Positions 2,039 to 61,958 of a stretch of 63,973 nt of DNA are shown here, in pieces. The stretch spans positions 1-63,973 of the forward strand of contig JACROV010000012.1 in NCBI GenBank assembly GCA_016214285.1, in the 5' to 3' direction. Each line of letters begins with the position of its first letter. Within the stretch, counting starts at the first letter, position 1. Under the pieces are notes generated by a model. It had not been told where the DNA came from. It saw only the letters and a program-made list of their open reading frames with translations, and did no database searches. Origin of the DNA: Candidatus Omnitrophota bacterium (GTDB taxonomy: Bacteria; Omnitrophota; Gorgyraeia; Zapsychrales; Zapsychraceae). Made by a program: the position numbers and the translations under genes.

Positions 2039-2650
2039 TTAAAATACTCCCTCGGAAACAACCACCATATCCCCCGCCTTAAGGAGGATGTCGTTTTCGG
2101 AATCGCCGTCCATGACCTTCGTTATATCGATCTTGATGGTTTCATAACCGGCTTCATCCCGCTTCGGTCTTAAGACCTTCACGCGGGATGAGGAACCGAA
2201 TTTGGAAAACCCGCCGGCCATGGAAATGGCCCTCAAGACGGTTGTATTTTCCGCGATCGCGTAGGCGCCGGGTTTTATGACCTCCCCGTAGACAAAGAAT
2301 TTCCGGCTGCGGGATTCCTGCAAGGACACCACCACAACCGGGTATTTCATATACCCGTCGGCCAGCGCGGAGCGCACCTTTTCCTGGACCTGCGGGACGG
2401 TCATGTCCTTGACCTTAACGGTGCCGATATAGGGAAATGTGATCGTCCCGTCGGGCGCCACGTTGACAACGCGCAGAAGTGCATCCGGCTGCAGGACGCT
2501 GATTTCCAGAATATCGTCTACGCCGACGGTGTATGCCTTCTCTTGCGCGGCCTCTTCCTCCCGAAGGGAGCCTTTCGTCCGCGCCGTGCATGGGATAACC
2601 ACGACGGTTATCAGCGCTAATGCGGTTGCCAGGGAAAGAATGTATTTCAT
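2039..2650 (-). CDS. wza: Polysaccharide export protein (Poly_export + SLBB domains)
   Basis: YTVGVDDILEISV, PDGTITFPYIG, VYGEVIKPGAY and AISMAGGFS motifs; signal peptide. Confidence 0.9.
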   Translation of the reverse strand: MKYILSLATALALITVVVIPCTARTKGSLREEEAAQEKAYTVGVDDILEISVLQPDALLRVVNVAPDGTITFPYIGTVKVKDMTVPQVQEKVRSALADGYMKYPVVVVSLQESRSRKFFVYGEVIKPGAYAIAENTTVLRAISMAGGFSKFGSSSRVKVLRPKRDEAGYETIKIDITKVMDGDSENDILLKAGDMVVVSEGVF

Positions 2651-4098: not shown

Positions 4099-5319
4099 TT
4101 AAAAAACAACCCTTACCCCCACTTCCACCCAATTCCGGTCATAGCCGCGGGTGTCTATGTTTGAATTTACTTCAGAATATGTATACGCGAGAAACGTTTG
4201 CGCGTTCCTGGTCACCTCATAACTTAATCGCGTGCTTGCCCCTGTTTGCCTGTCGGTAATACCCTGCGCCGCGAAATCCCCCTCTCCAAAAAATACCGAC
4301 GCGGTCATTTTCAGCCGTTCCAGTAATTGCCGGCCCAAACTTAGCGCCACCCGCCATGAATCAAAAATATCAGCCGTAAATGAGCTCGGTGTGCTTGTTT
4401 TGCTATAGGACAAGCTGGCCGAATCTGTTTCATTAAAATCATCGGTCAGGGCAACAGCCGCGCTCGGCTTGGACGCGCTGCTTCCGTCAAAGGCCTCCAC
4501 AAAAGAAACCCCGGCGCGGGTGTCGATATAAAGCTGCGTTGTCAGAGAATGCCTGAAACCCGTTGCCAATGTATGGACGGCTGCCGTACCGCTCTCATCA
4601 ATATGGCGTGTGGTAAAATCATATCCCAGAAGGAAGGCCGTGGCTGAACTTTCTATATAATTCACATCAAAACCAGCGCGGTTCAATAACGAATCCCTTA
4701 TATCCTCTCGCGATGTGCTATAGTTTTCATTGCCGTAATGTCCTTGAATGGAAACGTGCTTGCTCAGATCCCTTGTGTATTCAGCATTGAATGTGTTTCT
4801 GTAGTAGCTGTAACGGCCGGTGGTCCTGCCGAAATCATCTTCAAAGCTGCGCGGCTCTTCGGAATGCACAAATTTGTTTGTGGCAGAAAAGCGGTCATAC
4901 CTGGAAAGTTCTTTTTGGAAATCAATGTTGAGGTCCTGGGAGTTGTTATTGAACGAAGGATTGTCAGCAAATAAATGCCGTGTCAAATTCCCTTCCAGCG
5001 CGAGGGTGTGCGTTTTGCCCTCCTGTTTGGCCCCTAACCCGATCAGCAAATTGGTGACATTGTCGGATTTTTTATCTTCTTTGACAAAGGTCACGTTATC
5101 ATCATAGGCAGTGGAGACAGAACCTTTGACGTCAAGATCAAGCCCGGACGAAGCTGATGCTTTTGGCGGAAAAGCAAGGAACAAACAGCAAAAAGAAAGA
5201 CACGAGTTTAATAAATATATTTTTAGGGTTATGCCTTTGATGAACAGTGCAACAGGATTTCGTGCCCATCGTATGCTGGAAGTGGTAGTCAAGGGCATAA
5301 CCCTATATATTTTTTTCAT
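4099..5319 (-). CDS. EPS-associated outer-membrane beta-barrel protein, with a 30-aa MITE-derived insertion in its signal peptide
   Basis: Probable start MKKIY at 5319, 17 nt after the upstream stop (the ORF-track start at 5628 overlaps the cupin gene). Amphipathic beta strands, YDDNV motif, C-terminal VRVVF. Confidence 0.8.
   Translation of the reverse strand: MKKIYRVMPLTTTSSIRWARNPVALFIKGITLKIYLLNSCLSFCCLFLAFPPKASASSGLDLDVKGSVSTAYDDNVTFVKEDKKSDNVTNLLIGLGAKQEGKTHTLALEGNLTRHLFADNPSFNNNSQDLNIDFQKELSRYDRFSATNKFVHSEEPRSFEDDFGRTTGRYSYYRNTFNAEYTRDLSKHVSIQGHYGNENYSTSREDIRDSLLNRAGFDVNYIESSATAFLLGYDFTTRHIDESGTAAVHTLATGFRHSLTTQLYIDTRAGVSFVEAFDGSSASKPSAAVALTDDFNETDSASLSYSKTSTPSSFTADIFDSWRVALSLGRQLLERLKMTASVFFGEGDFAAQGITDRQTGASTRLSYEVTRNAQTFLAYTYSEVNSNIDTRGYDRNWVEVGVRVVF
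5224..5305. mobile_element. MITE-A copy 1: 82 bp, 17-bp imperfect TIR, 8-bp TSD TATATTTT
   Basis: TAGGGTTATGCCTTTGA...TCAAGGGCATAACCCTA. Flanks 5216-5223 and 5306-5313 are identical. Identical to copy 2 at 8842-8923. Confidence 0.95.
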
Positions 5320-5336: not shown

Positions 5337-5783
5337 CTAGATTATCCGCCTTCGCGGTCTTGAGGCCGGACGGCCGGACGAGGAGGTCCCGCCACGAGGG
5401 ACAGGCGAGGCGGCGCGGGCGTAGTCGTCTTCCAGCCTGACGATATCTTTTTCGGAAAGTTTCCCTCCGTTGGCGGCGACGGCCACTTCGATAAAGACCA
5501 GCTTCTTTTTCCCGGTATTCGCGATGCGGTGGATGGCGCCGACCGGAACACTTAAAACAGATCCGGCACCGACGATCTTTTTCCGTCCGTTGAGCATCAC
5601 GTAACCGTGCCCGCGGACGATATTCCATTTTTCCGAGCGGCAGGCATGTTTCTGCAGGCTAAGGCGGGCTCCCGGCTTTACCTCCACCCTTTTTACCCAG
5701 AGACCGTTTTCCTGGAATAATTTGACGTAATTGCCCCAGGGGCGGACGGTCATCGGATCGGAGCGTGTCGTTTTCATGGTCAT
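5337..5783 (-). CDS. Stand-alone type II mannose-6-phosphate isomerase cupin domain
   Basis: RPWG, VKPGARLSLQKH, RSEKW, HRIAN and DIVRLEDDY motifs; about 25 aa of atypical C-terminal extension. Confidence 0.9.
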   Translation of the reverse strand: MTMKTTRSDPMTVRPWGNYVKLFQENGLWVKRVEVKPGARLSLQKHACRSEKWNIVRGHGYVMLNGRKKIVGAGSVLSVPVGAIHRIANTGKKKLVFIEVAVAANGGKLSEKDIVRLEDDYARAASPVPRGGTSSSGRPASRPRRRII

Positions 5784-8739: not shown

Positions 8740-9165
8740 TTAGAAAGAAGTGGAAAGTATGACGTGGGTGGTCGCAAACTTTTCCTGTTTGGTCTTCGGC
8801 TTGATAATAATTTCGACATCCCGGTCCAAAGAATTCAACAATAGGGTTATGCCTTTGATGAACAGTGCAACAGGATTTCGTGCCCATCGTATGCTGGAAG
8901 TGGTAGTCAAGGGCATAACCCTATTCAACAATTCAAAAAGATGATCCAGAGAGAACATGCTGAGTTTGCCGTTCATAAGGCAGGAAACTTTGGGTTGAGG
9001 AATATCAAGTAATTCTGAAGCGGCTTTTTGGGTCAAACCACGATTTTTGATAATTTCTGCTACGCGGGACATAATCTGAGCGCGTGCCATAACTCTTTCA
9101 GGATGGGCAACCCCGATATCGACAAAAATATTATCACTTCCTCGATGGGCTTTTTCTTTATTCAT
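8740..9165 (-). CDS. XRE-family HTH antitoxin (HigA-like), with a 30-aa in-frame MITE insertion
   Basis: GSDNIFVDIG, LTQKAASELLDIPQPKVSCLMNGKLSMFSLDHL. Removing 90 nt restores LFELLNSLDRDVEIIIKP. Confidence 0.85.
   Translation of the reverse strand: MNKEKAHRGSDNIFVDIGVAHPERVMARAQIMSRVAEIIKNRGLTQKAASELLDIPQPKVSCLMNGKLSMFSLDHLFELLNRVMPLTTTSSIRWARNPVALFIKGITLLLNSLDRDVEIIIKPKTKQEKFATTHVILSTSF
8842..8923. mobile_element. MITE-A copy 2: 82 bp, 8-bp TSD TTCAACAA
   Basis: Identical to 5224-5305. Flanks 8834-8841 and 8924-8931 are identical to each other and differ from the copy-1 flanks. Confidence 0.95.
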
Positions 9166-14031: not shown

Positions 14032-16476
14032 TTAATGCCCTGTTCCATTCAATATCTCTTTGACATCATAGCCCAACATCCTATATGTCTTTAAACGCCG
14101 CTGATACATTCTGGTTAATACAGAAACGTTACGATCAACATAATCATAAATCCGGATGTCCTGCTTATCCTTGTGATACCGGTGAAGGCGTCCGGCATAC
14201 TGAACAATCTTGCCTTTAAACGAACTCGGCATGGTCAGAAATAGTGTATCCAAACGCGGCGCATCAAATCCCTCTCCGATATATGATCCGGTCGCCAGGA
14301 TAACCTTCCGGCAATCCTCAAGACTCTCTTTTATTCTTTCAAAAGCTTCCCGCCGCGCTTTCTGCCTGACTCCGCCATGCAGCCGGAATAAAACTTCAAC
14401 TTTACTCTCCAACAACTTCGCTAAAATCTCTAAATGCTCGCGTCTTTCTGTCAGAATCAGCGGGAACCTTCCTTCCCCCAATGACTCAACAACGTCCTGA
14501 ACGATTAGTTGATTCCTTGTCATATCTTCTATCATTCGGCTTGAGACATCCTGTATCTTAATATCGTCATTCCACGCATGTTCAAAGTCCGTGACACGCG
14601 GGATAACCCATGAAGCTGAAATATGCGCAGAGAGGTTTTTCTGTTTAATGCGGTGAGCAATCGGCCCGCACTGCATATGAATAATTGGCTGATGACCGTC
14701 CCGGCGATATGGTGTTGCGGTTAGCCCTAAAACATATTTTGCCTTTACCTGTGACAGAACCTTCTCAAATGAAACGGCACCCACGTGATGACATTCATCG
14801 ACAATAACAAAACCGTACTCTGCGATGCGGTCGTCAACCCCATCAGCCAAATCCATACTTTGAAACATGGCGATATCGATAACCCCATTCGACTTATTCT
14901 TGCCGCCGCCGATCTGACCGATGTCCTTTTTGTCGATACCTAAAAATGAGGCAGTCTGCAAACGCCACTGATCCATCAACGGTTTTCGGTGCACAAGAAT
15001 AAGTGCATTTGTTTTACGCTTGACGATAGATGCGATTGCTAACACTGTTTTCCCTGTTCCGGGCGGCGCGACAAAAACACCAACGTCCGACTCAAGAATG
15101 GCCTCTAACGCTTCTTCCTGTTCTTCATTGAGCGTGCCATCAAAAACAAAATCAACTTTTTTGCCTATGCCCCGTTTGTCCTCAACATTTATCCGGACGT
15201 TATACTCATCCAGCAAAGCCTTCATATCATCCAAGCACCCTCGAGGCAATGAAAGATAACCATCAACAATTTCCGCGCAACAAATAACCCGCGGTGTCGC
15301 ATGAGTTGAAAAACGCATCTTCTGCTTTCTATAAAACTCCGGATTTTGAAACGCGGCCAGATGTTTGAGCTGATTGAACAACAGTGACGGGCCACTTCCG
15401 GTCTTAATGTAAATTCGATTAGCGAGAACAACATCCAATGCTTCTGGCAGTTCCCTGATGTCAGCTTTAAATCGTCGCTTACCGGATGGTAGACGCATCC
15501 ATGGCTCATCATTTTCTTCAACCGGACTTTGGCGAACCGCGATAATTTGTCCGGTTCGTGAAGCCTCTTCAATAAAAGTTTCCACGTCCCGATGAGACAT
15601 CTTCTTAACAGACGACAAAAAAGTCCATTGATCTGAATAAGGCACACCATGTGCATCGATAAAAAGACTGTTGCCGTTGACCATCGCTTCTTTTTGAAAC
15701 GGCAAAGCAATCAGATTCCCGAATCCGCCTTTGGGCATCGTATCCTGATTCGGGAATAATCTGTCGTAACTTTTCATATCGATCTGATATCGCTTGGCCA
15801 TAGTTTTAGTAATGATCGAAGTCCCTAAACGCCTGGCTAAAACCGCGGGAATCTCTTCACTAAAGAAAATCCAAACATGCCCTCCGTTTCCCGAACGAGA
15901 TCGTTCAACCGCCGCGGGAATTTTTTCTTCGCTGCACGTCCTCATCATCGCCCGAATGTCATCCATCCAATGCTCTTTATCAAAATCAATCGCAAGAAAA
16001 TAGCAATGCTCATTTTTCAACATTGGATAAATAGCCATGACTTGAGCGCCTGTCAAATGTTGTTTGATAGCGATCTCATCCGTTAGAAGAAATCCTTGAT
16101 TGGGACATTCAGAACATTTGATGGCGGGCTTACGACATAAGACGCGATCCCATTCGTGCTTACAAACCGGGCTGTACCCACGCATGCCTGTGCGATTATT
16201 AATCCACAGCTTGGCATAAACATCCCCGCGGCCCCGGAAACAGGTTTTGAACAACGCAATTTTATCGTCTAAAAGCTGATTGTTATTGACCTTTTCCTTT
16301 CCAATGTCAAATCTCCGATGCCTGTTACTGACGGATTTTGGAGATTTGACATTTTGTTTGGCAGGGAGAAGGTCAATAACAGCAGTGGTTGGTTGAGGCG
16401 CGGTAATTTGCGGCCGGCAGGCTCCCTTCGGGAGGAGGGATTGCACGATTGGCAAGGCATTGATTCTTGAGGCCAT
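14032..16476 (-). CDS. AEP (TOTE-type) primase-like domain fused to a superfamily-2 helicase
   Basis: FRGRGDVYA, HLTG, LAIDFD, ERSRSGNGGHVW, FPNQD and GNLIALP (AEP); GTGKT, DECHH, LTATP, GEGFD and QYAGRLHR (SF2). Confidence 0.9.
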   Translation of the reverse strand: MASRINALPIVQSLLPKGACRPQITAPQPTTAVIDLLPAKQNVKSPKSVSNRHRRFDIGKEKVNNNQLLDDKIALFKTCFRGRGDVYAKLWINNRTGMRGYSPVCKHEWDRVLCRKPAIKCSECPNQGFLLTDEIAIKQHLTGAQVMAIYPMLKNEHCYFLAIDFDKEHWMDDIRAMMRTCSEEKIPAAVERSRSGNGGHVWIFFSEEIPAVLARRLGTSIITKTMAKRYQIDMKSYDRLFPNQDTMPKGGFGNLIALPFQKEAMVNGNSLFIDAHGVPYSDQWTFLSSVKKMSHRDVETFIEEASRTGQIIAVRQSPVEENDEPWMRLPSGKRRFKADIRELPEALDVVLANRIYIKTGSGPSLLFNQLKHLAAFQNPEFYRKQKMRFSTHATPRVICCAEIVDGYLSLPRGCLDDMKALLDEYNVRINVEDKRGIGKKVDFVFDGTLNEEQEEALEAILESDVGVFVAPPGTGKTVLAIASIVKRKTNALILVHRKPLMDQWRLQTASFLGIDKKDIGQIGGGKNKSNGVIDIAMFQSMDLADGVDDRIAEYGFVIVDECHHVGAVSFEKVLSQVKAKYVLGLTATPYRRDGHQPIIHMQCGPIAHRIKQKNLSAHISASWVIPRVTDFEHAWNDDIKIQDVSSRMIEDMTRNQLIVQDVVESLGEGRFPLILTERREHLEILAKLLESKVEVLFRLHGGVRQKARREAFERIKESLEDCRKVILATGSYIGEGFDAPRLDTLFLTMPSSFKGKIVQYAGRLHRYHKDKQDIRIYDYVDRNVSVLTRMYQRRLKTYRMLGYDVKEILNGTGH

Positions 16477-20503: not shown

Positions 20504-22626
20504 TAATCTGTTTCTATCAATTTCTTAATTTCCGGCAGGGCTTTGCGGGCGGCGTCTTCTCCGCGCTTGATGAGTTCATCGACCTTGTAGAGTTCGAACC
20601 AGTTGATGCCAACCAGGTCCGGATGGATGATGACATCCGCCTGCTGGGCGCTTTGTTCCGCCAGCACGTATTCAGTGGCCTGAAGGGTGCGCACGATAAT
20701 ATCCGAGATATTGTGTTTGAACGGCCCCAATAACACGCGCAGGATGCGGAATCCCAGAAATCGAAACGGCGCCCTCCGGAAGGGTAATCGTTCTTTTTTG
20801 AGCTCAGTATCTTTTTCCAGGGCGAAACTCGCGGAGACGTCGTGGGGGGATTGCAGCACGTTGACGGCAATGATCTTTTTGATGTTCCGGCTGGTTAAAA
20901 TGTTCGTCGGCAAGGGATTAAGGACACCCCCGTCGATGATCAAACGGTCTTTTTCGCGGATGGGTTCGATGACGCCGGGGATCGCGATGCTTTTGCGGAT
21001 GGCGTTGACCAGTGAACCGGATTCCATAACAAGCTCTTCCCTGCGGATCAGATCATAGGCGATGATCTTCAGCGGTATCCGGGTGCTGTAAAATGTCCGG
21101 CCGCCGAAATTCTTGCGCAGCCAGTATTTGATGGCCCGCCCCCCCATGAGCCCCGAGATGGGGACAACCGGGTCAAAGAGCGCCCACAAATTCCTTTTCT
21201 TCTCAAAATCCCGGGCGATCTTCTCGATCTCGGCCGCGTCTTTACCGATCGCCCAAAGGCTGGCAATGATGGCTCCCATGCTGCTGCCCACAATAATATC
21301 GACGGGGATGTGCTCTTTCTCCAGGACGCGCAAGACCCCGATATGGGCGAGACCTAAGGCCGCCCCTCCCCCCAACGCTAACCCGACCGAAACTCCTCCG
21401 ATTTCCCGCGCGATGCGGGTGATGGTTTTGGTGTATTCGCTGTGCGGTTCCGATTGGAGAAAAGATAAATGCTGTGAACCCTCGCGTTGCGTAAGTTCCG
21501 ATGGCTGCAAGGTCGGCAGCGCGGCGTAAACATGATAGTCGAGGTGTTTGTTGATCTCTTCGAACGACAGATAGATCTTTTCCTCAACGGCCCGGACGAT
21601 GACCCTGGTTTGCTCCTCGCGGAATTTATCCTGCAGGGCGGTTTCTAACCGGTCAATGACTTTGCGGATAGATTCCATGTCTCTGGTCCGGTCGCAGGTG
21701 ATCAGGTGCACCGAATCCGATTGGGTCAGCGTTTCTAAAACGATATCGTCCATTTCATTGGGCAGATCGACCACCACGTAATGGTAATCGCCGACAAAGG
21801 CGCTGACAAAAAGACCGATGTGTTTTTTAAGGGCCGTGTCCTTGGGGTCAAAGGAAACGTTAAGAAGATCAACGGGCAGATCCTTTTTGATGACATGGTC
21901 GAGGATTTTCCCGTGGTCATCGATGATCTGCGCGAGGCCGATCGGCGGGCTCTTCCAGCGGCCAAAGGCTCCTCCCCCGCGGGGGACCTCTGGCTGCGGG
22001 GAGGGAGAACTTCCCGCGCTTTGCGCGTTACCTTCCTTCCGGTCAGGGTGGATATTAATGAAGATAACGTTCTTGCCGGTCTCTTTGCGGATGCTCAGCG
22101 CCAGGTTAATGGCGTAGGTCGAAGAGCCCGTGCCGGTGACAGGGCTGTACACGGCGATGACCGTGCTTTCAAAGACGGACCCGGTCGTGTCATGGATCTT
22201 CCGGCGGATGCGCCGCGAAAGGCTTTGGCTCAAGCGCAATCCCAGCTGCGGGATGGAGTTGAGGATCTCATGAAAGTCCGCCTTCGATATCTTAAGGACG
22301 ATCGAGTCATTGAGGGCCTCGAAATTCATCGAATGGTTTTCGCCGGTCAGGATTGAAACGATCCCGAAGTGCATGCCGCGGTGGATGAAATCAATGTCTT
22401 CTTTTTTGGCGCGCAGGCTGCTGCTGTAGGCCAGCAGGCGTCCGGAGATCAGGCAGTAGAAAAAATCCGGCGGCCCCCCCTGCGGGCAGACGATGTCGCC
22501 TTTTTTGTATTCGACGATGACGGCCTTGCGGGCGATGTGGTGGAGCTCCATCCAGCTTAATCCCGTGAAAATGGGGATCTGGCGTACCAGGTGGAAGCGG
22601 TTGATGAGAGAAGACAAGTTGTTCAT
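20503..22626 (-). CDS. cNMP-binding domain + MinD/CpaE-like domain + patatin-like phospholipase
   Basis: cNMP fold (FYCLISG, GMHFG), degenerate P-loop SPVTGTGSST, patatin motifs GGGAALG, GSSMG and DGG. Confidence 0.85.
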   Translation of the reverse strand: MNNLSSLINRFHLVRQIPIFTGLSWMELHHIARKAVIVEYKKGDIVCPQGGPPDFFYCLISGRLLAYSSSLRAKKEDIDFIHRGMHFGIVSILTGENHSMNFEALNDSIVLKISKADFHEILNSIPQLGLRLSQSLSRRIRRKIHDTTGSVFESTVIAVYSPVTGTGSSTYAINLALSIRKETGKNVIFINIHPDRKEGNAQSAGSSPSPQPEVPRGGGAFGRWKSPPIGLAQIIDDHGKILDHVIKKDLPVDLLNVSFDPKDTALKKHIGLFVSAFVGDYHYVVVDLPNEMDDIVLETLTQSDSVHLITCDRTRDMESIRKVIDRLETALQDKFREEQTRVIVRAVEEKIYLSFEEINKHLDYHVYAALPTLQPSELTQREGSQHLSFLQSEPHSEYTKTITRIAREIGGVSVGLALGGGAALGLAHIGVLRVLEKEHIPVDIIVGSSMGAIIASLWAIGKDAAEIEKIARDFEKKRNLWALFDPVVPISGLMGGRAIKYWLRKNFGGRTFYSTRIPLKIIAYDLIRREELVMESGSLVNAIRKSIAIPGVIEPIREKDRLIIDGGVLNPLPTNILTSRNIKKIIAVNVLQSPHDVSASFALEKDTELKKERLPFRRAPFRFLGFRILRVLLGPFKHNISDIIVRTLQATEYVLAEQSAQQADVIIHPDLVGINWFELYKVDELIKRGEDAARKALPEIKKLIETD

Positions 22627-36496: not shown

Positions 36497-38704
36497 TTAA
36501 ACTGAATAAAATCTTTTGCCATTCTCTTGCAGTTTTAATAAATAAGTTGTTGGTTGAAAACGTTGCGCTTGAAGCTTTTCCTCCAACCGTTTGAGTTCGG
36601 ATACGATAGCCGAAACTCCCAGTGTGTCCGCGTAGCGTAATAATCCTCCGCGAAACGCCGGAAATCCCGCGCCGAAGATCATGCCGACGTCAATGGCGCC
36701 CGGCGCGTCAACGATCCCTTCTTCCAGACAGCGTGCCGCTTCGTTGATCATCACATACAGCATGCGCCGCAGGATTTCTTCTTGATCCGGATGGGCGCCT
36801 CGGACACTCCCGGGGTGTCCTGGCTGTATTGCCGGATTCGGCTGGACGCCTCTGACACTCCCGGAGTGTCCTGGCTGATGGAGGTAAAATCCTTTCCCTG
36901 ATTTTTTTCCGAGAAACCCTTGGGCGTAAATTTTTTCAAAGATCTCCACCGGTTTGAACCGCTCTCCTAACCCGGCTTCGAGGATATGCAGGACTTTACT
37001 GCCCACATCAAGACCCACTTCATCGGTCAAAGTGAACGGACCCATCGGCATGCCAAAATCCGTCATGATCTTGTCAATGGCGACGACTGAATTGCCCTCT
37101 TCCAGGAGCCGGCCGGCTTCGTTGATGTATCCCAGCAGGATCCGGTTGACCACGAATCCGCAGGAATCCTTGACGACGATCGGTGTCTTGCCCAGACGCC
37201 TGACCAGCGCCAGAGTGCCTGCCAGTGTTTCCTTGCTGGTTTGCGCGGTCATGATGATCTCAACGAGCGGCATCTTGTGGACGGGGTTAAAAAAATGCAA
37301 GCCGATCACTTTGGAAGGATCTTTTGTTTCCCCCGCCATTTCCGTGACGGATAACGCCGAGGTATTGGTCGCCAGGATCGTTTGCCCTCCGGCCGCGGCG
37401 CTTAATTCCCGGAAAACCTTGCGTTTGACCTCCATGTTCTCGACCACCGCCTCGATGGCGATGCCGGTATCGGCAAATCCGCTGTAATCCAGCGTCGGGG
37501 TGATCTTGTCCATTTTGACGGCCGCTTCGTAAGGCTTCATGCGGCGCTTTTTTACGGCGTCGCGGTAAAGTTTTGCCGCCGAGCGCACGCCAAGCGCGAG
37601 CGCTTCGTAGTTGATGTCTTTTAAACGCACCCAGATATTTGCATAGCTTAGCAATTGAGCGATGCCGCCGCCCATCACTCCAGCGCCGATGATCCCGCAT
37701 TTTTCGACAGGTTTTGGCGTAATACCTTCTACGTTAAGCTTGCGATATTGTTCCGAAAGATAGAAAACATGGATGAGGTTCTTTGCGACAGCGGTTGCGG
37801 CCAGTTCGTTGAATTCCCGCGCTTCTACGTCAAGACCTTTAGTCCGGTCCAGGTAAAAATTTTTCTTGATGACGGCGATGGCTTTAAGGGGCGCCGGGTA
37901 AAATCCTTTGGTATTTTTCAAAACGGACTGGATGGATTGCTGGAAGATAAACCATTGGCCGAGCAAAGACCCCTCGAGGATGCTGGCAAGTCCTTTGGTT
38001 TTTCGGCGCGCGTATTTGTCAGGGACAATGCGGCCTTGCCGGATATCTTCGATAAACGTGTTGAGATAATGGTCCAGGCCATTTTGCGGCGCCAGGCGAT
38101 CGACCAAACCCAAGCGCAGCGCTTTGCTACTGTCTACGGATTTTCCGGTGAGGATCATGTTCAGGCCATCGGGCAAGCCGATCAACCGTGGCAAGCGGTA
38201 CGTCCCGCCAAAAGCGGGAAAGATCCCGAGATTGACTTCGGGCAAGCCGATACGTGTTTTTTCATTGAACGTTGCCAGGCGGTATTGGCACGCGAGCGCC
38301 AGCTCACAGCCGCCGCCCAAGGCCGCTCCATCAATGACGGCAATGGTGGGTACGGCCAGGTCTTCGAGCTTGTTAAGGATGTCCTGCCCGGCTTTGGCTT
38401 TTTGCAAGCCCTCTTCGGACCGCGTGATCCCTTCGATCTCCTTGATGTCCGCTCCGGCGATAAAAATGTCTTTCTTTTTGCTGACGATGACGACGGCTTT
38501 TAAAGAAGATTTACCGGCCGGCAGGCTCTTCCCCGCGGGCAGGGAGGCTCCCTGCGGGAGGAACCTCTGGCCTGCGGGAGCAAGCGAGTCCAGAATTTTA
38601 TCCAATTCCTGCAGCGCGGCCGCGGTCAAAAGGTTGACCTTGGAATCCGTTTGGTCGAATTCGATGAAGCCGGTGTTGTTGTCTTCACGGTAGGTGATTG
38701 ACAT
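36497..38704 (-). CDS. fadB: Fatty-acid oxidation complex alpha subunit (enoyl-CoA hydratase / 3-hydroxyacyl-CoA dehydrogenase), with two palindrome-derived insertions
   Basis: FIAGADI, GGGCELALAC, LPEVNLG, GAGVMGGG, TNTSAL, HFFNPV and GFVVNR. Confidence 0.93.
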   Translation of the reverse strand: MSITYREDNNTGFIEFDQTDSKVNLLTAAALQELDKILDSLAPAGQRFLPQGASLPAGKSLPAGKSSLKAVVIVSKKKDIFIAGADIKEIEGITRSEEGLQKAKAGQDILNKLEDLAVPTIAVIDGAALGGGCELALACQYRLATFNEKTRIGLPEVNLGIFPAFGGTYRLPRLIGLPDGLNMILTGKSVDSSKALRLGLVDRLAPQNGLDHYLNTFIEDIRQGRIVPDKYARRKTKGLASILEGSLLGQWFIFQQSIQSVLKNTKGFYPAPLKAIAVIKKNFYLDRTKGLDVEAREFNELAATAVAKNLIHVFYLSEQYRKLNVEGITPKPVEKCGIIGAGVMGGGIAQLLSYANIWVRLKDINYEALALGVRSAAKLYRDAVKKRRMKPYEAAVKMDKITPTLDYSGFADTGIAIEAVVENMEVKRKVFRELSAAAGGQTILATNTSALSVTEMAGETKDPSKVIGLHFFNPVHKMPLVEIIMTAQTSKETLAGTLALVRRLGKTPIVVKDSCGFVVNRILLGYINEAGRLLEEGNSVVAIDKIMTDFGMPMGPFTLTDEVGLDVGSKVLHILEAGLGERFKPVEIFEKIYAQGFLGKKSGKGFYLHQPGHSGSVRGVQPNPAIQPGHPGSVRGAHPDQEEILRRMLYVMINEAARCLEEGIVDAPGAIDVGMIFGAGFPAFRGGLLRYADTLGVSAIVSELKRLEEKLQAQRFQPTTYLLKLQENGKRFYSV
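36797..36877. repeat. Two 30-bp palindromic units inside fadB (28/30 identical, 51-bp period)
   Basis: GCCTCGGACACTCCCGGGGTGTCCTGGCTG (36797-36826) and GCCTCTGACACTCCCGGAGTGTCCTGGCTG (36848-36877). Confidence 0.9.
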
Positions 38705-41881: not shown

Positions 41882-44038
41882 TCACTTTGAGGACGAAGTT
41901 CCCGGTTCGGCACGCATGCTCAGGGCGATCCGCTTTCGCTCGAGGTCCACCCCGACGACAGTGACCATCACCTTCTGATGAACACTCACCACCTCATGCG
42001 GATCCTTGATGTAACGCCGCGCGAGCTGGCTGATGTGCAGCAGCCCGTCCTGGTGCACCCCGATATCCACAAAAGCGCCGAAGGCGGTGATGTTCGTCAC
42101 CACCCCGGGAAGTTTCATCCCCGGGCGCAGGTCTTCAAGGGTCTGCACACCATCCTGAAAACTGAACAGCGCGAATGGCTCCCGCGGATCCCTCCCCGGC
42201 TTGGCCAGTTCGGCTTTGATATCCAGCAAGGTCGGCATTCCGATGGTTTCGCTGGCGTATTTCTCCAATGGTATTTTTGAGATCAGGCCCGCGTTGCCGA
42301 TCATCCCATCGAGTGAACACCCGAGGTCTCGCGCCATGGTTTCCACAACACAATAAGATTCAGGATGGACCGCGCTGGCATCAAGCGGATTTTTCGCGTC
42401 ATGGATCCGCAGGAAACCGGCCGCCTGCTCAAAAGCTTTAGGGCCCAAACCGGCCACTTTTTTTAATTCCTCGCGCTGATGGAAGGGCCCGTGCGTATTG
42501 CGGTGGTCCAGGATCGCCTGCGCGCGGACAGGACCTAATCCGGAGACATATGTCAATAACTGTTTGCTGGCGGTATTGACCTCGACGCCGACGAGGTTGA
42601 CGCAGCTGATGACCACATCATCAAGGCCGTCCTTCAAAAGATTCTGGTCCACGTCGTGCTGGTACTGCCCCACGCCTATTGATTTGGGATCGATCTTCAC
42701 CAATTCCGCCAACGGATCCATCAGCCGCCTGCCGATAGAAACGGACCCGCGGACCGTGACGTCGTAATTGGAGAACTCCTCCCTCGCCGCCTCCGACGCG
42801 GAATAAATTGAGGCCCCGCTTTCATTGACCATGACCACATGGATCTCCTGGGGGAGCCCGATCCCGCGGATGAAGACTTCGGTCTCGCGGCCGGCTGTCC
42901 CGTGACCGATCGCGATCACCTCCGTCTTATACTTTCGGCAGAGGTCCAAAACAGTTCGTGAGGCTGTCTGTTCTGATGACTTGATGCCCGTGATATAAAT
43001 GGTCTCATGGTGCAAGAGTTTCCCCTGGCGGTCGAGGCAGACGAGCTTGCATCCCGTGCGGAAGCCCGGGTCAATGGCCAGGACGTTTTTCTGGCCCAGA
43101 GGCGGGGCCAGCAGCAGCTGGCGCAGATTATTTTTGAAGATCTCAACGGCCTCGTGATCAGCGCGTTTTTTCAATTCCAGACGGATCTCCGTTTCCAAAG
43201 AGAGGCTTAATAAACGCTTGTAACCGTCCTCGACGGCCAAACGCGTTTCTTGGGCGTCTTTTCCGTCGCCCTGGACAAAAAGGTTTACCAGTACCGGCAG
43301 CGCTTCTTCCTCCGGCGGCAGGATCCGCACCGTTAAAAATTCTTCCTTCTCGCCGCGGCGCAGGGCGAGGATACGGTGCGAGAGGACGTTTTTGACCGGT
43401 TCCTCCCGCTCAAAGTAATCTTTGTATTTGCTTCCGTCTTTTTCCTTGCCTCTGACCACGCGCGACGAGATCACCGCGCGATCACGGAAGAGGGCGCGAA
43501 GCCGGGAACGGGCTGGCGCGTCTTCGCTCACCCACTCGGCGATGATATCGCGCGCGCCGGCCAAGGCCTCGGCGACGGAATTGACCTTCTTCTCAGCATT
43601 GACATAACCTGTGGCCGCGGCCGCCGGGTCAATTCCCTCCTGAGCAAAAATTTCTTGAGCCAGAGGCTCAAGCCCCTTCTCCTTGGCGATGCTGGCCCGG
43701 GTGCGGCGTTTGGGCCGGTAAGGGAGATAAATGTCCTCCAGCGCTGTCAGTGTTGCGCAGGCCAGGATCTTTTCGTTTAATTCTTCAGTGAGTTTACCCT
43801 GTTGCTGGATCGACTCAAGGATCGTCGCTCGCCGTTTGTCCATCTCGTTTAGCTGATGCAGACGATCACGGATGCCGGTGACGGCCACCTCATCCAGGCT
43901 TCCGGTGGCCTCTTTGCGGTAACGGGCAATAAAAGGGATGCTGGCGCCTTCTTCCAGAAGGTGGACCGTCGCGGCCACCTGTGAGGGCTTAACGCGAAGT
44001 TCCTGGGCGATTTGCGCATTATAGAAGTTTTTATTCAT
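41882..44038 (-). CDS. tex: Tex-family RNA-binding transcription accessory protein
   Basis: IPFIARYRKEATG, AIDPGFRTGCK, ESGASIYSAS, DPKSIGVGQYQHD and a C-terminal S1 domain. Confidence 0.97.
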   Translation of the reverse strand: MNKNFYNAQIAQELRVKPSQVAATVHLLEEGASIPFIARYRKEATGSLDEVAVTGIRDRLHQLNEMDKRRATILESIQQQGKLTEELNEKILACATLTALEDIYLPYRPKRRTRASIAKEKGLEPLAQEIFAQEGIDPAAAATGYVNAEKKVNSVAEALAGARDIIAEWVSEDAPARSRLRALFRDRAVISSRVVRGKEKDGSKYKDYFEREEPVKNVLSHRILALRRGEKEEFLTVRILPPEEEALPVLVNLFVQGDGKDAQETRLAVEDGYKRLLSLSLETEIRLELKKRADHEAVEIFKNNLRQLLLAPPLGQKNVLAIDPGFRTGCKLVCLDRQGKLLHHETIYITGIKSSEQTASRTVLDLCRKYKTEVIAIGHGTAGRETEVFIRGIGLPQEIHVVMVNESGASIYSASEAAREEFSNYDVTVRGSVSIGRRLMDPLAELVKIDPKSIGVGQYQHDVDQNLLKDGLDDVVISCVNLVGVEVNTASKQLLTYVSGLGPVRAQAILDHRNTHGPFHQREELKKVAGLGPKAFEQAAGFLRIHDAKNPLDASAVHPESYCVVETMARDLGCSLDGMIGNAGLISKIPLEKYASETIGMPTLLDIKAELAKPGRDPREPFALFSFQDGVQTLEDLRPGMKLPGVVTNITAFGAFVDIGVHQDGLLHISQLARRYIKDPHEVVSVHQKVMVTVVGVDLERKRIALSMRAEPGTSSSK

Positions 44039-49043: not shown

Positions 49044-49200
49044 ATTGCTAATGAATTTAGCGCGGATAATCTTTTACGTCAAGACCATAGTTTATTATTC
49101 ATTGTGAATACCACTGGACTTCACAATTAAATTTTGCTATAAAACTTGGGCATAAAGATATCATTTTGGGCCACCAAGGCCTGCCAGCGGCAGGCCGCAG

Positions 49201-54244: not shown

Positions 54245-54410
54245 TTTAAAATCCGAAGCACGAATATCGTCAGCCAGAGGCTGATCCGCATTAGGCGGAA
54301 AATCCGAAACAAATCCAAAATTTTAAATCCAAAGCGATAAACGTTTACGTATTTGAATTTTTGATTTAGATATTGTTTCGTATTTCGCGCTTCGTATTTC
54401 GTGCTTCAGA
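54245..54410. repeat. Heptamer inverted repeat H14 (CGAA type) with a nested 30-bp GC-rich cassette at 54270-54299
   Basis: aaatccgaagcacgaatatcg[tcagccagaggctgatccgcattaggcgga]aaatccgaaacaaat ... gtttcgtatttcgcgcttcgtatttcgtgcttc. Confidence 0.85.
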
Positions 54411-60857: not shown

Positions 60858-61958
60858 TTATTTCCCGTTCTGCCACAGCCGCGCCAGACCGGCGTCGAGG
60901 AGTTCCTGGTTCAAATAATTTCCGGCTTGCGCGACCTTCGTGGGGCCGCTGAAATCTATGGTAACCCCTGCTCGCCCTCCCTGGGCTCGCGGGGTGCTCG
61001 CGGCTTCTCTGGATTGTGGAAGCCGCGGAGCATAAAAGACATCCGCCAGGTAGCGATCATATTTGTCGGTGGTGTCCTTGTGGGTCTTGACGACGATAAA
61101 ATCGAGGCCGTTGAGGCGCTCTTCCACGAAACGTTTCGCGCGTTTGCCTTCGGGCGTATTGATCTCGGGACAGTCGATGCCCCGCAGGCGGAACTTTTGC
61201 GTGAGGAACATCCGGAAATTCAGATGGACCCGGGCGATCAAAGTGTCGCCGTCGATGATCTTTTTGACCCCGGCCTTGTAGGTGAACAATTGTTCTTTGG
61301 GGACGAGGGCCGTTTTGAAAAAGCGGTCGTCGCGGACCTGGACACAGGCGTCTTTTTGAAGACGCATCCTTTTGATCTGCGCGAATCCCCAATGCAGCCG
61401 GAACCCCATGTCGACCAGCAGGTCTTTCTCTCCCTCGTCTTCAACCAGCGCGAAGGTGTTCACCCGCCCGCGGACAACGGTTAATTGAGGGATTTCCTTT
61501 TCCGCGTCTTTTTTGTCGTCACGTGTTTCTGCTGTGGCGGCCTGGATCGTCGTCATCTTATCCTTAAGTTCATCGACACTCCATCCTTTGAGGATGGCTT
61601 GATGTTCCAGTTGTTTACGTTGTTTCTCATCTTTAACCGTCATCAAATGCAAGAAATGGCTCCAGGGCAATTGCGTCAACCTTGACGCAATTGGGTAAGT
61701 CCGGTACAACTGGACGGTGCGTTCCAGCGTCCTTTTATTTAATGAAACTACAGGAACAAGCTGTTCATAAACGTGATCGCCGTACTGGGCCCGGCCTTTG
61801 TTTTTCAAGATCTCCCGGTTGACCCAGCGCCCGATGCGCCAGTAGCCAAGGGTCACCCGGCCTTTGACGTCCAGTTCCATGTTCCGGATTTCCCGTTTGA
61901 TGTCGGCGGCCAACTTTGAAATACTGCCTGGGGTGAGGAGGCTTTTCTTCATCATCAA
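60858..61958 (-). CDS. DUF1016 N-terminal-like domain fused to a thermonuclease (SNase) domain
   Basis: YWRIGR, QYG..V, LPWSHFLHL and WSVDEL (YhcG-N); IIDGDT, RLRGIDCPE, DKYDRYLA and NQELL..GLA (SNase). Confidence 0.8.
   Translation of the reverse strand: MMMKKSLLTPGSISKLAADIKREIRNMELDVKGRVTLGYWRIGRWVNREILKNKGRAQYGDHVYEQLVPVVSLNKRTLERTVQLYRTYPIASRLTQLPWSHFLHLMTVKDEKQRKQLEHQAILKGWSVDELKDKMTTIQAATAETRDDKKDAEKEIPQLTVVRGRVNTFALVEDEGEKDLLVDMGFRLHWGFAQIKRMRLQKDACVQVRDDRFFKTALVPKEQLFTYKAGVKKIIDGDTLIARVHLNFRMFLTQKFRLRGIDCPEINTPEGKRAKRFVEERLNGLDFIVVKTHKDTTDKYDRYLADVFYAPRLPQSREAASTPRAQGGRAGVTIDFSGPTKVAQAGNYLNQELLDAGLARLWQNGK

Follow-up and report, generated by a model that had tools for sequence, protein, structure and literature searches.

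GC-rich inserts in the patatin and fadB genes

The 63,973-nt stretch analyzed here (the window) is contig C73 of G000, a 1.82-Mb, 104-contig, 88%-complete assembly of a Candidatus Omnitrophota bacterium (GCA_016214285.1, contig JACROV010000012.1), and was compared with congeners from the same groundwater genus (G001 to G006; completeness of the genus assemblies, 59-93%). Two of its genes, encoding a cNMP-binding/patatin-like phospholipase and a fadB-type enoyl-CoA hydratase/3-hydroxyacyl-CoA dehydrogenase, contain short GC-rich patches that match a 21-nt unit, the subject of this analysis (coordinates in Table 1). An earlier note on this DNA, made without database searches, had drawn attention to a 10-base motif beside a GC palindrome in the patatin gene and again in the fadB N-terminus, and both copies lie where it placed them: CAGCCAGAGG is found on the minus strand at 21987-21996, adjoins TCCCCCGCGGGGGA and encodes ...SPSPQPEVPRGGGAFG..., and CAGGCCAGAGG, the 10-mer with one extra G, is found at 38564-38574 and encodes APAGQRFLPQGASLPAGKSLPAGKS.

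Alignment of the encoded proteins to orthologues, the check that the earlier note had proposed, delimited both patches as clean gaps. Patatin orthologues occur in 30 of the 31 relatives searched, and the patatin insert corresponds to a 14-residue gap in 11 orthologues (those of G006 and G002, at 90% amino-acid identity, and nine more), while the fadB insert corresponds to a gap of 21 residues against nine orthologues. At the fadB site the stages of growth are preserved among living relatives: G006, G004 and G005 have no insert there, G001 has one of 42 nt and the window one of 63 nt. The 42-nt doublet of G001, which consists of the outer and middle parts of the window's insert, reads CTCCCGCAGG-CCAGAGGTTC^CCTGCGGGGAA-GAGCCTACCGG (the caret marks the insertion point), and the G000 sequence equals this doublet with CTCCCGCAGGGAGCCTCCCTG added at TTC^CC, no target bases being duplicated. 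A series of empty, 42-nt and 63-nt states of this kind is rare and renders the process testable. In an AlphaFold model of the fadB product (mean predicted local distance difference test score, pLDDT, of 84), the insert at residues 44-64 models as a disordered loop, with pLDDT <50 and a coil conformation between the helix at residues 28-41 and the strand at residues 70-75 of the crotonase domain.

Both genes carry further variable segments. In fadB, a second patch, HQPGHSGSVRGVQPNPAIQPGHPGSVRGAHP at window positions ~36784-36874 (residues ~611-641), contains two copies of another hairpin, GACACTCCCGGRGTGTCCTGGCTG, of which G006 has a single shorter copy, and the model shows pLDDT <50 at residues 613-618 and 629-635 of this patch. 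In the patatin gene, G006 and G002 have a GC-rich insert of 21-24 residues (PGGPSPRP..LGPRWGEGTSIHG) that is missing from the window; it separates VIDRL from KFREE and lies opposite window position ~21631, ~100 residues downstream of the window's own insert. The G003 and G004 proteins contain other additional sequence, located a few residues upstream of the position where the window's own insert lies. These differences indicate at least three independent hits on the patatin gene within the genus.

The 21-nt unit, its target and its nesting

The elementary unit comprises 21 nt, or seven codons, written CTCCC-(GAA/GCA/AAA)-GGGAG-CCT-NNN-GG or, in its general form, CTCCC-NNN-GGGAG-CCT-NNN-GG, and holds two very short inverted repeats. 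An unbiased spectrum of indels between G000 and G006, taken in both directions and resting on 1.38 Mb of G006 sequence, peaks at 21, 42, 63 and 84 nt, and 12 of the 17 21-nt indels specific to G000 are the unit with a GAA, GCA or AAA loop. Counts in G000 were 35 for exact copies, 53 with up to one substitution and 65 with up to two, compared with 0, 0 and 4 in a shuffled genome. With its composites the unit occupies ~91 G000 loci, referred to as family B, which appear as GC-rich stretches within long open frames; an iterated nhmmer profile of the genome gave 47-48 loci. Frequency above chance, a test that the earlier note had set for its motif, is thus clear for the unit (53 copies against none) and weak for the 10-mer alone, which occurs in the window twice exactly and seven times with up to one mismatch against 2.4 expected, a count reached in one of 100 shuffles. 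The longer form CCGCAG(G)CCAGAGG occurs five times in G000, and the contexts of CAG(G)CCAGAGG genome-wide split into two groups, family B in genes and a family D that is considered below. The 10-mer was therefore rejected as a family marker, being too weak by itself and lumping two unrelated families. The motif is only the visible tip of the 21-nt unit family, and the unit, its target preference and its nesting had all been missed in the earlier note. The patatin and fadB patches most likely belong to a non-autonomous family of mobile DNA that is specific to the genus and has a self-nesting 21-nt unit.

Filled and empty sites were compared between congeners. Forty of 47 profile loci have a two-sided orthologous match in G006, and G006 is without all or part of the element at 37 of these 40. 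Across the 91 family-B loci, 57 have an orthologous G006 site and only two of the 57 are common to both genomes; the G000-versus-G006 size differences were 21 nt (15 loci), 42 nt (9), 63 nt (6), 84 nt (2) and 105 nt (1). The comparison with G001, which shares ~82-92% nucleotide identity with G000 at unit sites and up to 99% in some flanking stretches, gave 19 G001 unit sites with an orthologous G000 match, comprising eight clean 21-nt gaps in G000 and three sites with a single unit in one genome and a composite in the other. Since only two of the 57 loci are common with G006 and G001 and G000 also differ, the activity of the unit is recent and ongoing in several lineages, and the proposal that it represents an "older" route of peptide insertion did not hold. 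Local tandem duplication was rejected as the origin of the first insertions, no unit being present at the empty sites.

The flanks of the insertions are biased in composition. Specifically, of 25 clean 21-nt events in either genome, 24 have T or C at position -3, 16 have T at -2, and C is found at -1, +1 and +2 in 20, 22 and 14 events, respectively, with P values for these positions ranging from 1e-3 to 1e-10. The preferred insertion point is (Y)TC^C(C), which is used in either orientation relative to genes and without target duplication: the empty alleles read ...TTC^CC..., with TTC and CC present once each, in the 25 events, in the eight clean G001/G000 events and in the fadB nest. Composite events inspected by eye (n~18) all start with CTCC... 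and end with ...CCTNNNGG, with C as the next base in most.

The unit itself carries the target twice, as CTC^CC at its own 5' end and as GGCTC^CC on the complementary strand, so that new copies often land within old ones. Composites of 42, 63, 84 and 105 nt were found, and three sites show the step directly, with a single unit in G001 and the same unit interrupted after CTCCCNNNGG in G000, by 21 nt at C29:1472 and C26:18963 and by 42 nt at C76:56752. Each of the 63-mers at C22, C53, C68 and C44 consists exactly of "CTC", a 42-mer and "CCNAAGGGAGCCTNNCGG", and without the 42-mer a perfect unit is left. In ten same-sense nests the inner segment measures 21, 22, 33, 42 or 45 nt, and 16 matches to an antisense-nest pattern have inner lengths of 21 nt (6), 39 nt (5), 42 nt (4) and 60 nt (1), the five 39-nt matches overlapping same-sense nests at the same loci. 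The patatin insert, which on the minus strand consists of CTCCCCGCAG, CCAGAGGTCCCCCGCGGGGGA and GGAGCCTTTGG in succession, may be read in the same way, by analogy with the single-versus-composite sites of G001 and G000, as an outer unit CTCCCCGCAG...GGAGCCTTTGG (22003-21994 + 21972-21962) around an inverted unit CCAGAGGTCCCCCGCGGGGGA (21993-21973). The 10-mer of the earlier note spans the junction of outer and inner unit in this 42-mer, and the subfamily to which the patatin 42-mer belongs has 8-10 further G000 sites that are empty in G006.

In this process the unit, or a block with the same ends, is copied to another position; no target-site duplication results, the favored point lies between the two C residues of (T/C)TC^C(C), and either orientation relative to genes occurs. 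Same-sense nesting gives "CTC + insert + CCNNNGGGAGCCTNNNGG", antisense nesting gives inverted doublets resembling GC palindromes, and the resulting composites of 42, 63, 84 and 105 nt spread as blocks. Nesting accounts for the GC-rich "palindromes" inside genes without a long palindromic transposon, and a replicating unit of 21 nt with a clear insertion rule is among the smallest described.

Host genes, neighboring features and distribution

The claim that the element was inserted repeatedly and in frame into housekeeping and other genes, creating loops rich in Pro, Gly, Ala, Arg, Ser and Glu, is supported. In G000, 37 of 53 units (70%) fall within open frames that are 150 aa or longer, and all six classes of orientation and frame are occupied (by 10, 10, 6, 5, 4 and 2 units). 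As the unit is seven codons long and mostly free of stop codons, insertion into a gene never shifts the frame, and the inserts keep the host frame open. In the antisense frame where an ATC or AAC loop would give TAG, only two units were found, both with other loops, a pattern that fits selection against stop codons. The intact frames suggest that the inserts are translated, and they are probably neutral; insertions would survive where a disordered loop of 7-35 residues is tolerated. The element may in this sense be regarded as a natural insertion-mutagenesis system that marks loops tolerating 7-35 extra residues in fadB, patatin and other proteins, and in annotation such inserts are not to be mistaken for frameshifts, inteins or assembly errors.

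Table 1. Positions in the window of the two host genes, their inserts, the single units and the family D copy.
Feature	Position	Strand	Description
Single 21-nt unit CTCCCGAAGGGAGCCTTTCGT	2558..2578	plus	Antisense to the gene, in frame (KGSLREE); unit match
Single 21-nt unit CTCCCGAAGGGAGCCTGCCGG (LPKGACR)	16414..16434	minus	Exact unit match; putative insertion
cNMP-binding/patatin-like phospholipase, 707 aa	20503..22626	minus	Open reading frame; Pfam cNMP_binding + Patatin
Patatin insert, 42 nt, 14 codons (SPQPEVPRGGGAFG)	21962..22003	minus	Ends ambiguous by 1-2 nt
fadB-type enoyl-CoA hydratase/3-hydroxyacyl-CoA dehydrogenase, 735 aa	36497..38704	minus	Pfam ECH_1, 3HCDH_N, 3HCDH
fadB insert, 63 nt, 21 codons	38518..38580	minus	Triple nest; clean 21-residue gap against nine orthologues
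fadB outer unit CTCCCGCAGG...GAGCCTGCCGG	38580-38571 + 38528-38518	minus	Part of triple nest
fadB middle unit, inverted, CCAGAGGTTC...CCCGCGGGGAA	38570-38561 + 38539-38529		Part of triple nest
fadB innermost 21-nt unit CTCCCGCAGGGAGCCTCCCTG	38540..38560	minus	Unit pattern match; sits at GGTTC^CC of the middle unit
Family D copy, 30-nt double hairpin TCAGCC-AGA-GGCTGA / TCCGC-ATTA-GCGGA	54270..54299	plus	Intergenic; not family B

The window contains two single units in other genes. The unit at 2558-2578 immediately follows the signal-peptide segment in a gene for a Poly_export/SLBB lipoprotein (2039-2650, minus strand; Pfam), and the orthologous G001 locus, ~90% identical over 613 nt, has a 21-nt gap at this point. 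The unit at 16414-16434 forms codons 15-21 of an 814-aa gene at 14032-16476 (minus strand; Pfam), the product of which combines the archaeo-eukaryotic primase domain of the "TOTE conflict system" with a ResIII/DEAD helicase. This gene lies within a segment of 45-48% GC, and the low-GC 8-17 kb stretch that includes it, which looks like a defense island, is apparently absent from the syntenic G006 contig, where the cupin and patatin genes are 7 kb apart compared with 15 kb in the window. At window positions 42973-42996 (gene 41882-44038, minus strand) the site is empty, and the orthologous position in G001 holds a 21-nt unit, CTCCCGCAGGGAGCCTATCGG. Two 83-nt copies of the element named MITE-A in the earlier note, 100% identical to each other, are found at 5224-5306 and 8842-8924.

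An intergenic copy at 54270-54299 had also been assigned to the motif's family. An exact 10-mer is indeed present between genes at 54271-54280, and it is the only sequence that this locus has in common with family B; the copy lies within an arm of an intergenic cassette of 7-base repeats and belongs to family D. The members of family D are pairs of 15-nt hairpins, TC(A/C)GCC-NNN-GGC(T/G)GA + TCCGCC-NNN-GGCGGA, with the overall 30-nt design CG/TCAGCCAGAGGCTGATCCGCCTTTGGCGGA/AAA, and most full copies follow CG and hence read CG/TC. About 14 loci were found in G000, mostly in the arms of AT-rich 7-base-repeat intergenic cassettes, with covarying stems and a predicted DNA fold of z = -5.7. Because the copy at G000 C27:5407-5436 is absent from G006, family D also looks mobile.

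Related hairpins had further been proposed at the cupin 3' end (5386-5402), at 49178-49196 and in the SNase gene (60960-61030). These were rejected as members, since the family B profile has no match at any of the three positions and the SNase segment aligns without gaps to G006. The hairpin at 49178-49196, GGCCTGCCAGCGGCAGGCC, resembles a second 21-nt family, GCCTGCCTGCCCGGCAGGCAG, a single hairpin with a 9-bp stem that forms many in-frame insertions specific to G006; its G006 loci include those opposite G000 C14:10384, C103:20693, C73:29602 and C73:25121, the last two being window positions.

The unit is confined to a single Omnitrophota genus. It is present in six of the seven species of the genus, with exact counts of 35 in G000, 29 in G001, 16 in G004, 13 in G006, 10 in G002, 7 in G003 and 0 in G005, and among 401 Omnitrophota genomes searched three others have one or two copies each. 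A search of 185,579 species genomes gave 38 matches, of which 22 are in Candidatus Omnitrophota assemblies or metagenome-assembled genomes whose coordinates agree with those of genus members (UBA10147, ERP119705_co25_233, NC_groundwater_1780 and 1781, RIFCSPHIGHO2_01_FULL_52_10, nzgw308 and SJ432), and the other 16 are singletons, close to the ~17 random matches expected when 18 fixed bases are sought in 596 Gb. No unit match was found in 2.9 million viral contigs, and a viral carrier was rejected on this result. The literature searched contained no report of these elements in Omnitrophota.

Candidate machinery and comparison with known systems

In the process described above, a dedicated enzyme would do the copying as a site-specific activity working in trans. 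A number of results weigh against a family moved in this way. Composite lengths of 39, 45, 48, 54 and 60 nt are multiples of 3 and not of 21, so that secondary indels or variant 18-/24-nt units must exist. The earlier note had suggested looking for a transposase of the REP-associated tyrosine transposase (RAYT) or HUH type flanked by the motif, and none was encountered: no RAYT or other transposase is linked to units in G000, in which the only Y1 (HUH) match is an N-truncated Y1_Tnp fragment with no units beside it; the four Y1 genes of G006 have no flanking units; and among the congeners unit counts do not track Y1 genes, G004 having 16 units and no Y1 match and sister genera having 2-6 Y1 genes and no units. 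A linkage to RAYT/Y1 was rejected on these grounds of location, co-variation and flanks. Y2/IS91-type transposases gave no match, a weak test because the control genomes were likewise silent. Folded as single-stranded DNA, the units are no more stable than dinucleotide shuffles (z = -0.4, 0.0 and -0.8), and a structural recognition signal is therefore not demonstrated. The orientation of the units shows no bias relative to GC skew or to the local dominant gene strand (P = 0.78; both are weak proxies in a fragmented genome).

Several candidate features of the unit were discarded. The unit contains a 5-bp inverted repeat with a 3-nt loop, and a few compensatory variants such as CTCTC/GAGAG occur; hairpin stability was nevertheless rejected as a defining feature because family B folds like the shuffles and only family D folds better. 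A replication-strand or gene-strand bias was rejected, as none was seen. Complementarity between the loop triplet and the left flank (GAA with TTC) was also set aside, no consistent pairing being apparent by eye in the 25 events and in the clean 21-nt events between G001 and G000. The truncated Y1 gene of G000, at C43:1-700, is of the IS200-like/RAYT-like type, immediately follows the 3' end of an IS3-type integrase fragment and probably represents a dead element.

Three other explanations of the inserts were weighed. One holds that the units are REP/REPIN sequences moved by a RAYT, or miniature IS200/IS605 elements moved by a Y1 HUH enzyme acting on single-stranded hairpins, with the transposase gene lying in the missing 12% of the assembly. 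Insertion 3' of a short specific motif without target duplication, as seen here, fits such elements, a Y1_Tnp fragment is present in G000 with intact copies in G006, and the loops of the units are mostly GAA or GCA closed by C-G, a combination that makes unusually stable DNA mini-hairpins. The spread of inverted doublets as blocks likewise recalls REPINs (PMC3116915). This explanation is nonetheless unlikely, given that 70% of the units are intragenic and not extragenic, that they have neither a GTAG nor a CGTC tag (PMC3733652), and that the truncation of the G000 Y1 gene and its lack of unit flanks, the G004, sister-genus and G006 Y1 results, the absence of strand bias and the folding energies described above all count against it.

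Slightly less probable again is copying without a dedicated enzyme, in which replication or repair would switch templates at microhomologies (left, TTC; right, CC), hairpin-prone units being the preferred donors. The flank consensus is identical to the sequence that flanks all donor copies, a prediction of microhomology-guided copying, and the variability and modularity of the composites, some with lengths that are not multiples of 21 nt, as well as the resemblance of the native right flank in patatin, CCGCTGGAAGAGCCCGCCGATCGGCC, to the unit, point the same way. A microhomology of 2-4 bases, however, cannot explain a constant 21-nt donor with the same two ends at dozens of unrelated sites, or identical 42- and 63-nt blocks with the same termini at unrelated loci, and the process is limited to one genus, whereas replication errors are universal. 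The idea that the inserts are functional modules maintained by selection, either flexible linkers or RNA/DNA signals in genes, draws on the good conservation of the copies (35 of 65 exact) and on one copy shared by G000 and G006 that differs at only 1 of 59 positions. It is very improbable: with all six frames and orientations in use, the units encode no peptide or sense-strand RNA in common, almost every site is specific to a lineage, with differences even among close congeners, the host genes (patatin, fadB, polysaccharide exporter, primase-helicase) are unrelated, and the fadB insert is predicted to be a disordered loop.

For a mobile, self-nesting 21-nt family, an HUH-type enzyme is the favored mechanistic analogy, although the features that define membership of the HUH systems are lacking. 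We tentatively raise the possibility that an undescribed insertion machinery, neither RAYT/Y1 nor DDE, operates in this genus, and perhaps throughout the Omnitrophota with units that differ between lineages; it would write a 21-nt unit at (Y)TC^CC without duplication, and the unit, with its own target on both strands, would grow by self-nesting. If so, no smaller autonomous-looking insertion module would be known, and the machinery would be a natural source of loop insertions in proteins. The absence of a linked transposase points to an enzyme worth finding.

Comparison with known classes of small elements places the unit outside each of them. DDE-derived miniature inverted-repeat transposable elements have terminal inverted repeats and a target-site duplication, neither of which was found here, the ends CTCCC... 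and ...CCTNNNGG not being mutual inverted repeats. Like the miniature elements of IS200/IS605 (palindrome-associated transposable elements), the unit inserts without duplication 3' of a short specific sequence, and it differs from them in having no cognate Y1 transposase and no bias to one replication strand. Small dispersed repeats of 21-27 nt in Nostoc and related cyanobacteria (mentioned in PMC3116915), reportedly described by Elhai and colleagues in Genome Research in 2008, are similar in being ~21 nt long, mobile-looking, abundant in some genomes and absent from relatives, and nested in other repeats; they differ in phylum and sequence. The mobile GC clusters of yeast mitochondria and the double-hairpin elements of Allomyces mitochondria are also tiny GC-rich hairpins that spread within a genome and occasionally lie in frame, but these are organellar, stand in an AT-rich context, in some cases have short target duplications and are unrelated in sequence.

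The closest analogies are with two other groups. To our knowledge, neither a defined target such as (Y)TC^CC nor stepwise nesting has been described for Rickettsia palindromic elements (RPEs). REPs and REPINs are extragenic, have GTAG or CGTC tags and occur beside a RAYT gene (PMC3116915; PMC3733652); they share with the present unit a size of 20-40 nt with an inverted repeat, tens to hundreds of copies, doublets that spread as blocks and the lack of target duplication (PMC3116915; PMC3733652). The earlier note's description of a modular REP-like family is accurate for the modularity and the repeated insertion, and "REP-like" applies by analogy only, as the units are mostly intragenic, have neither tag and are not linked to a RAYT, and as their doublets form when one unit inserts into another and do not consist of two units around a spacer. 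RPEs, reported by Ogata et al. (2000) and summarized in PMC10969869, are ~100-150 bp long, encode a conserved peptide in each family and belong to the Rickettsia lineage. The likeness extends to short GC-biased palindromic repeats that stand in frame in many unrelated housekeeping genes, are read through as peptide segments compatible with the protein fold and are lineage-specific, with no transposase known for either (PMC10969869). In-frame insertion into unrelated protein genes in a manner compatible with the fold was indeed found here; in contrast to RPEs, the inserts measure 21-105 nt, are built from a 21-nt unit that uses six frames and grows by nesting, and occur in one genus of another phylum, without sequence similarity. 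By analogy, then, the element works like RPEs and REPINs while being a member of neither.

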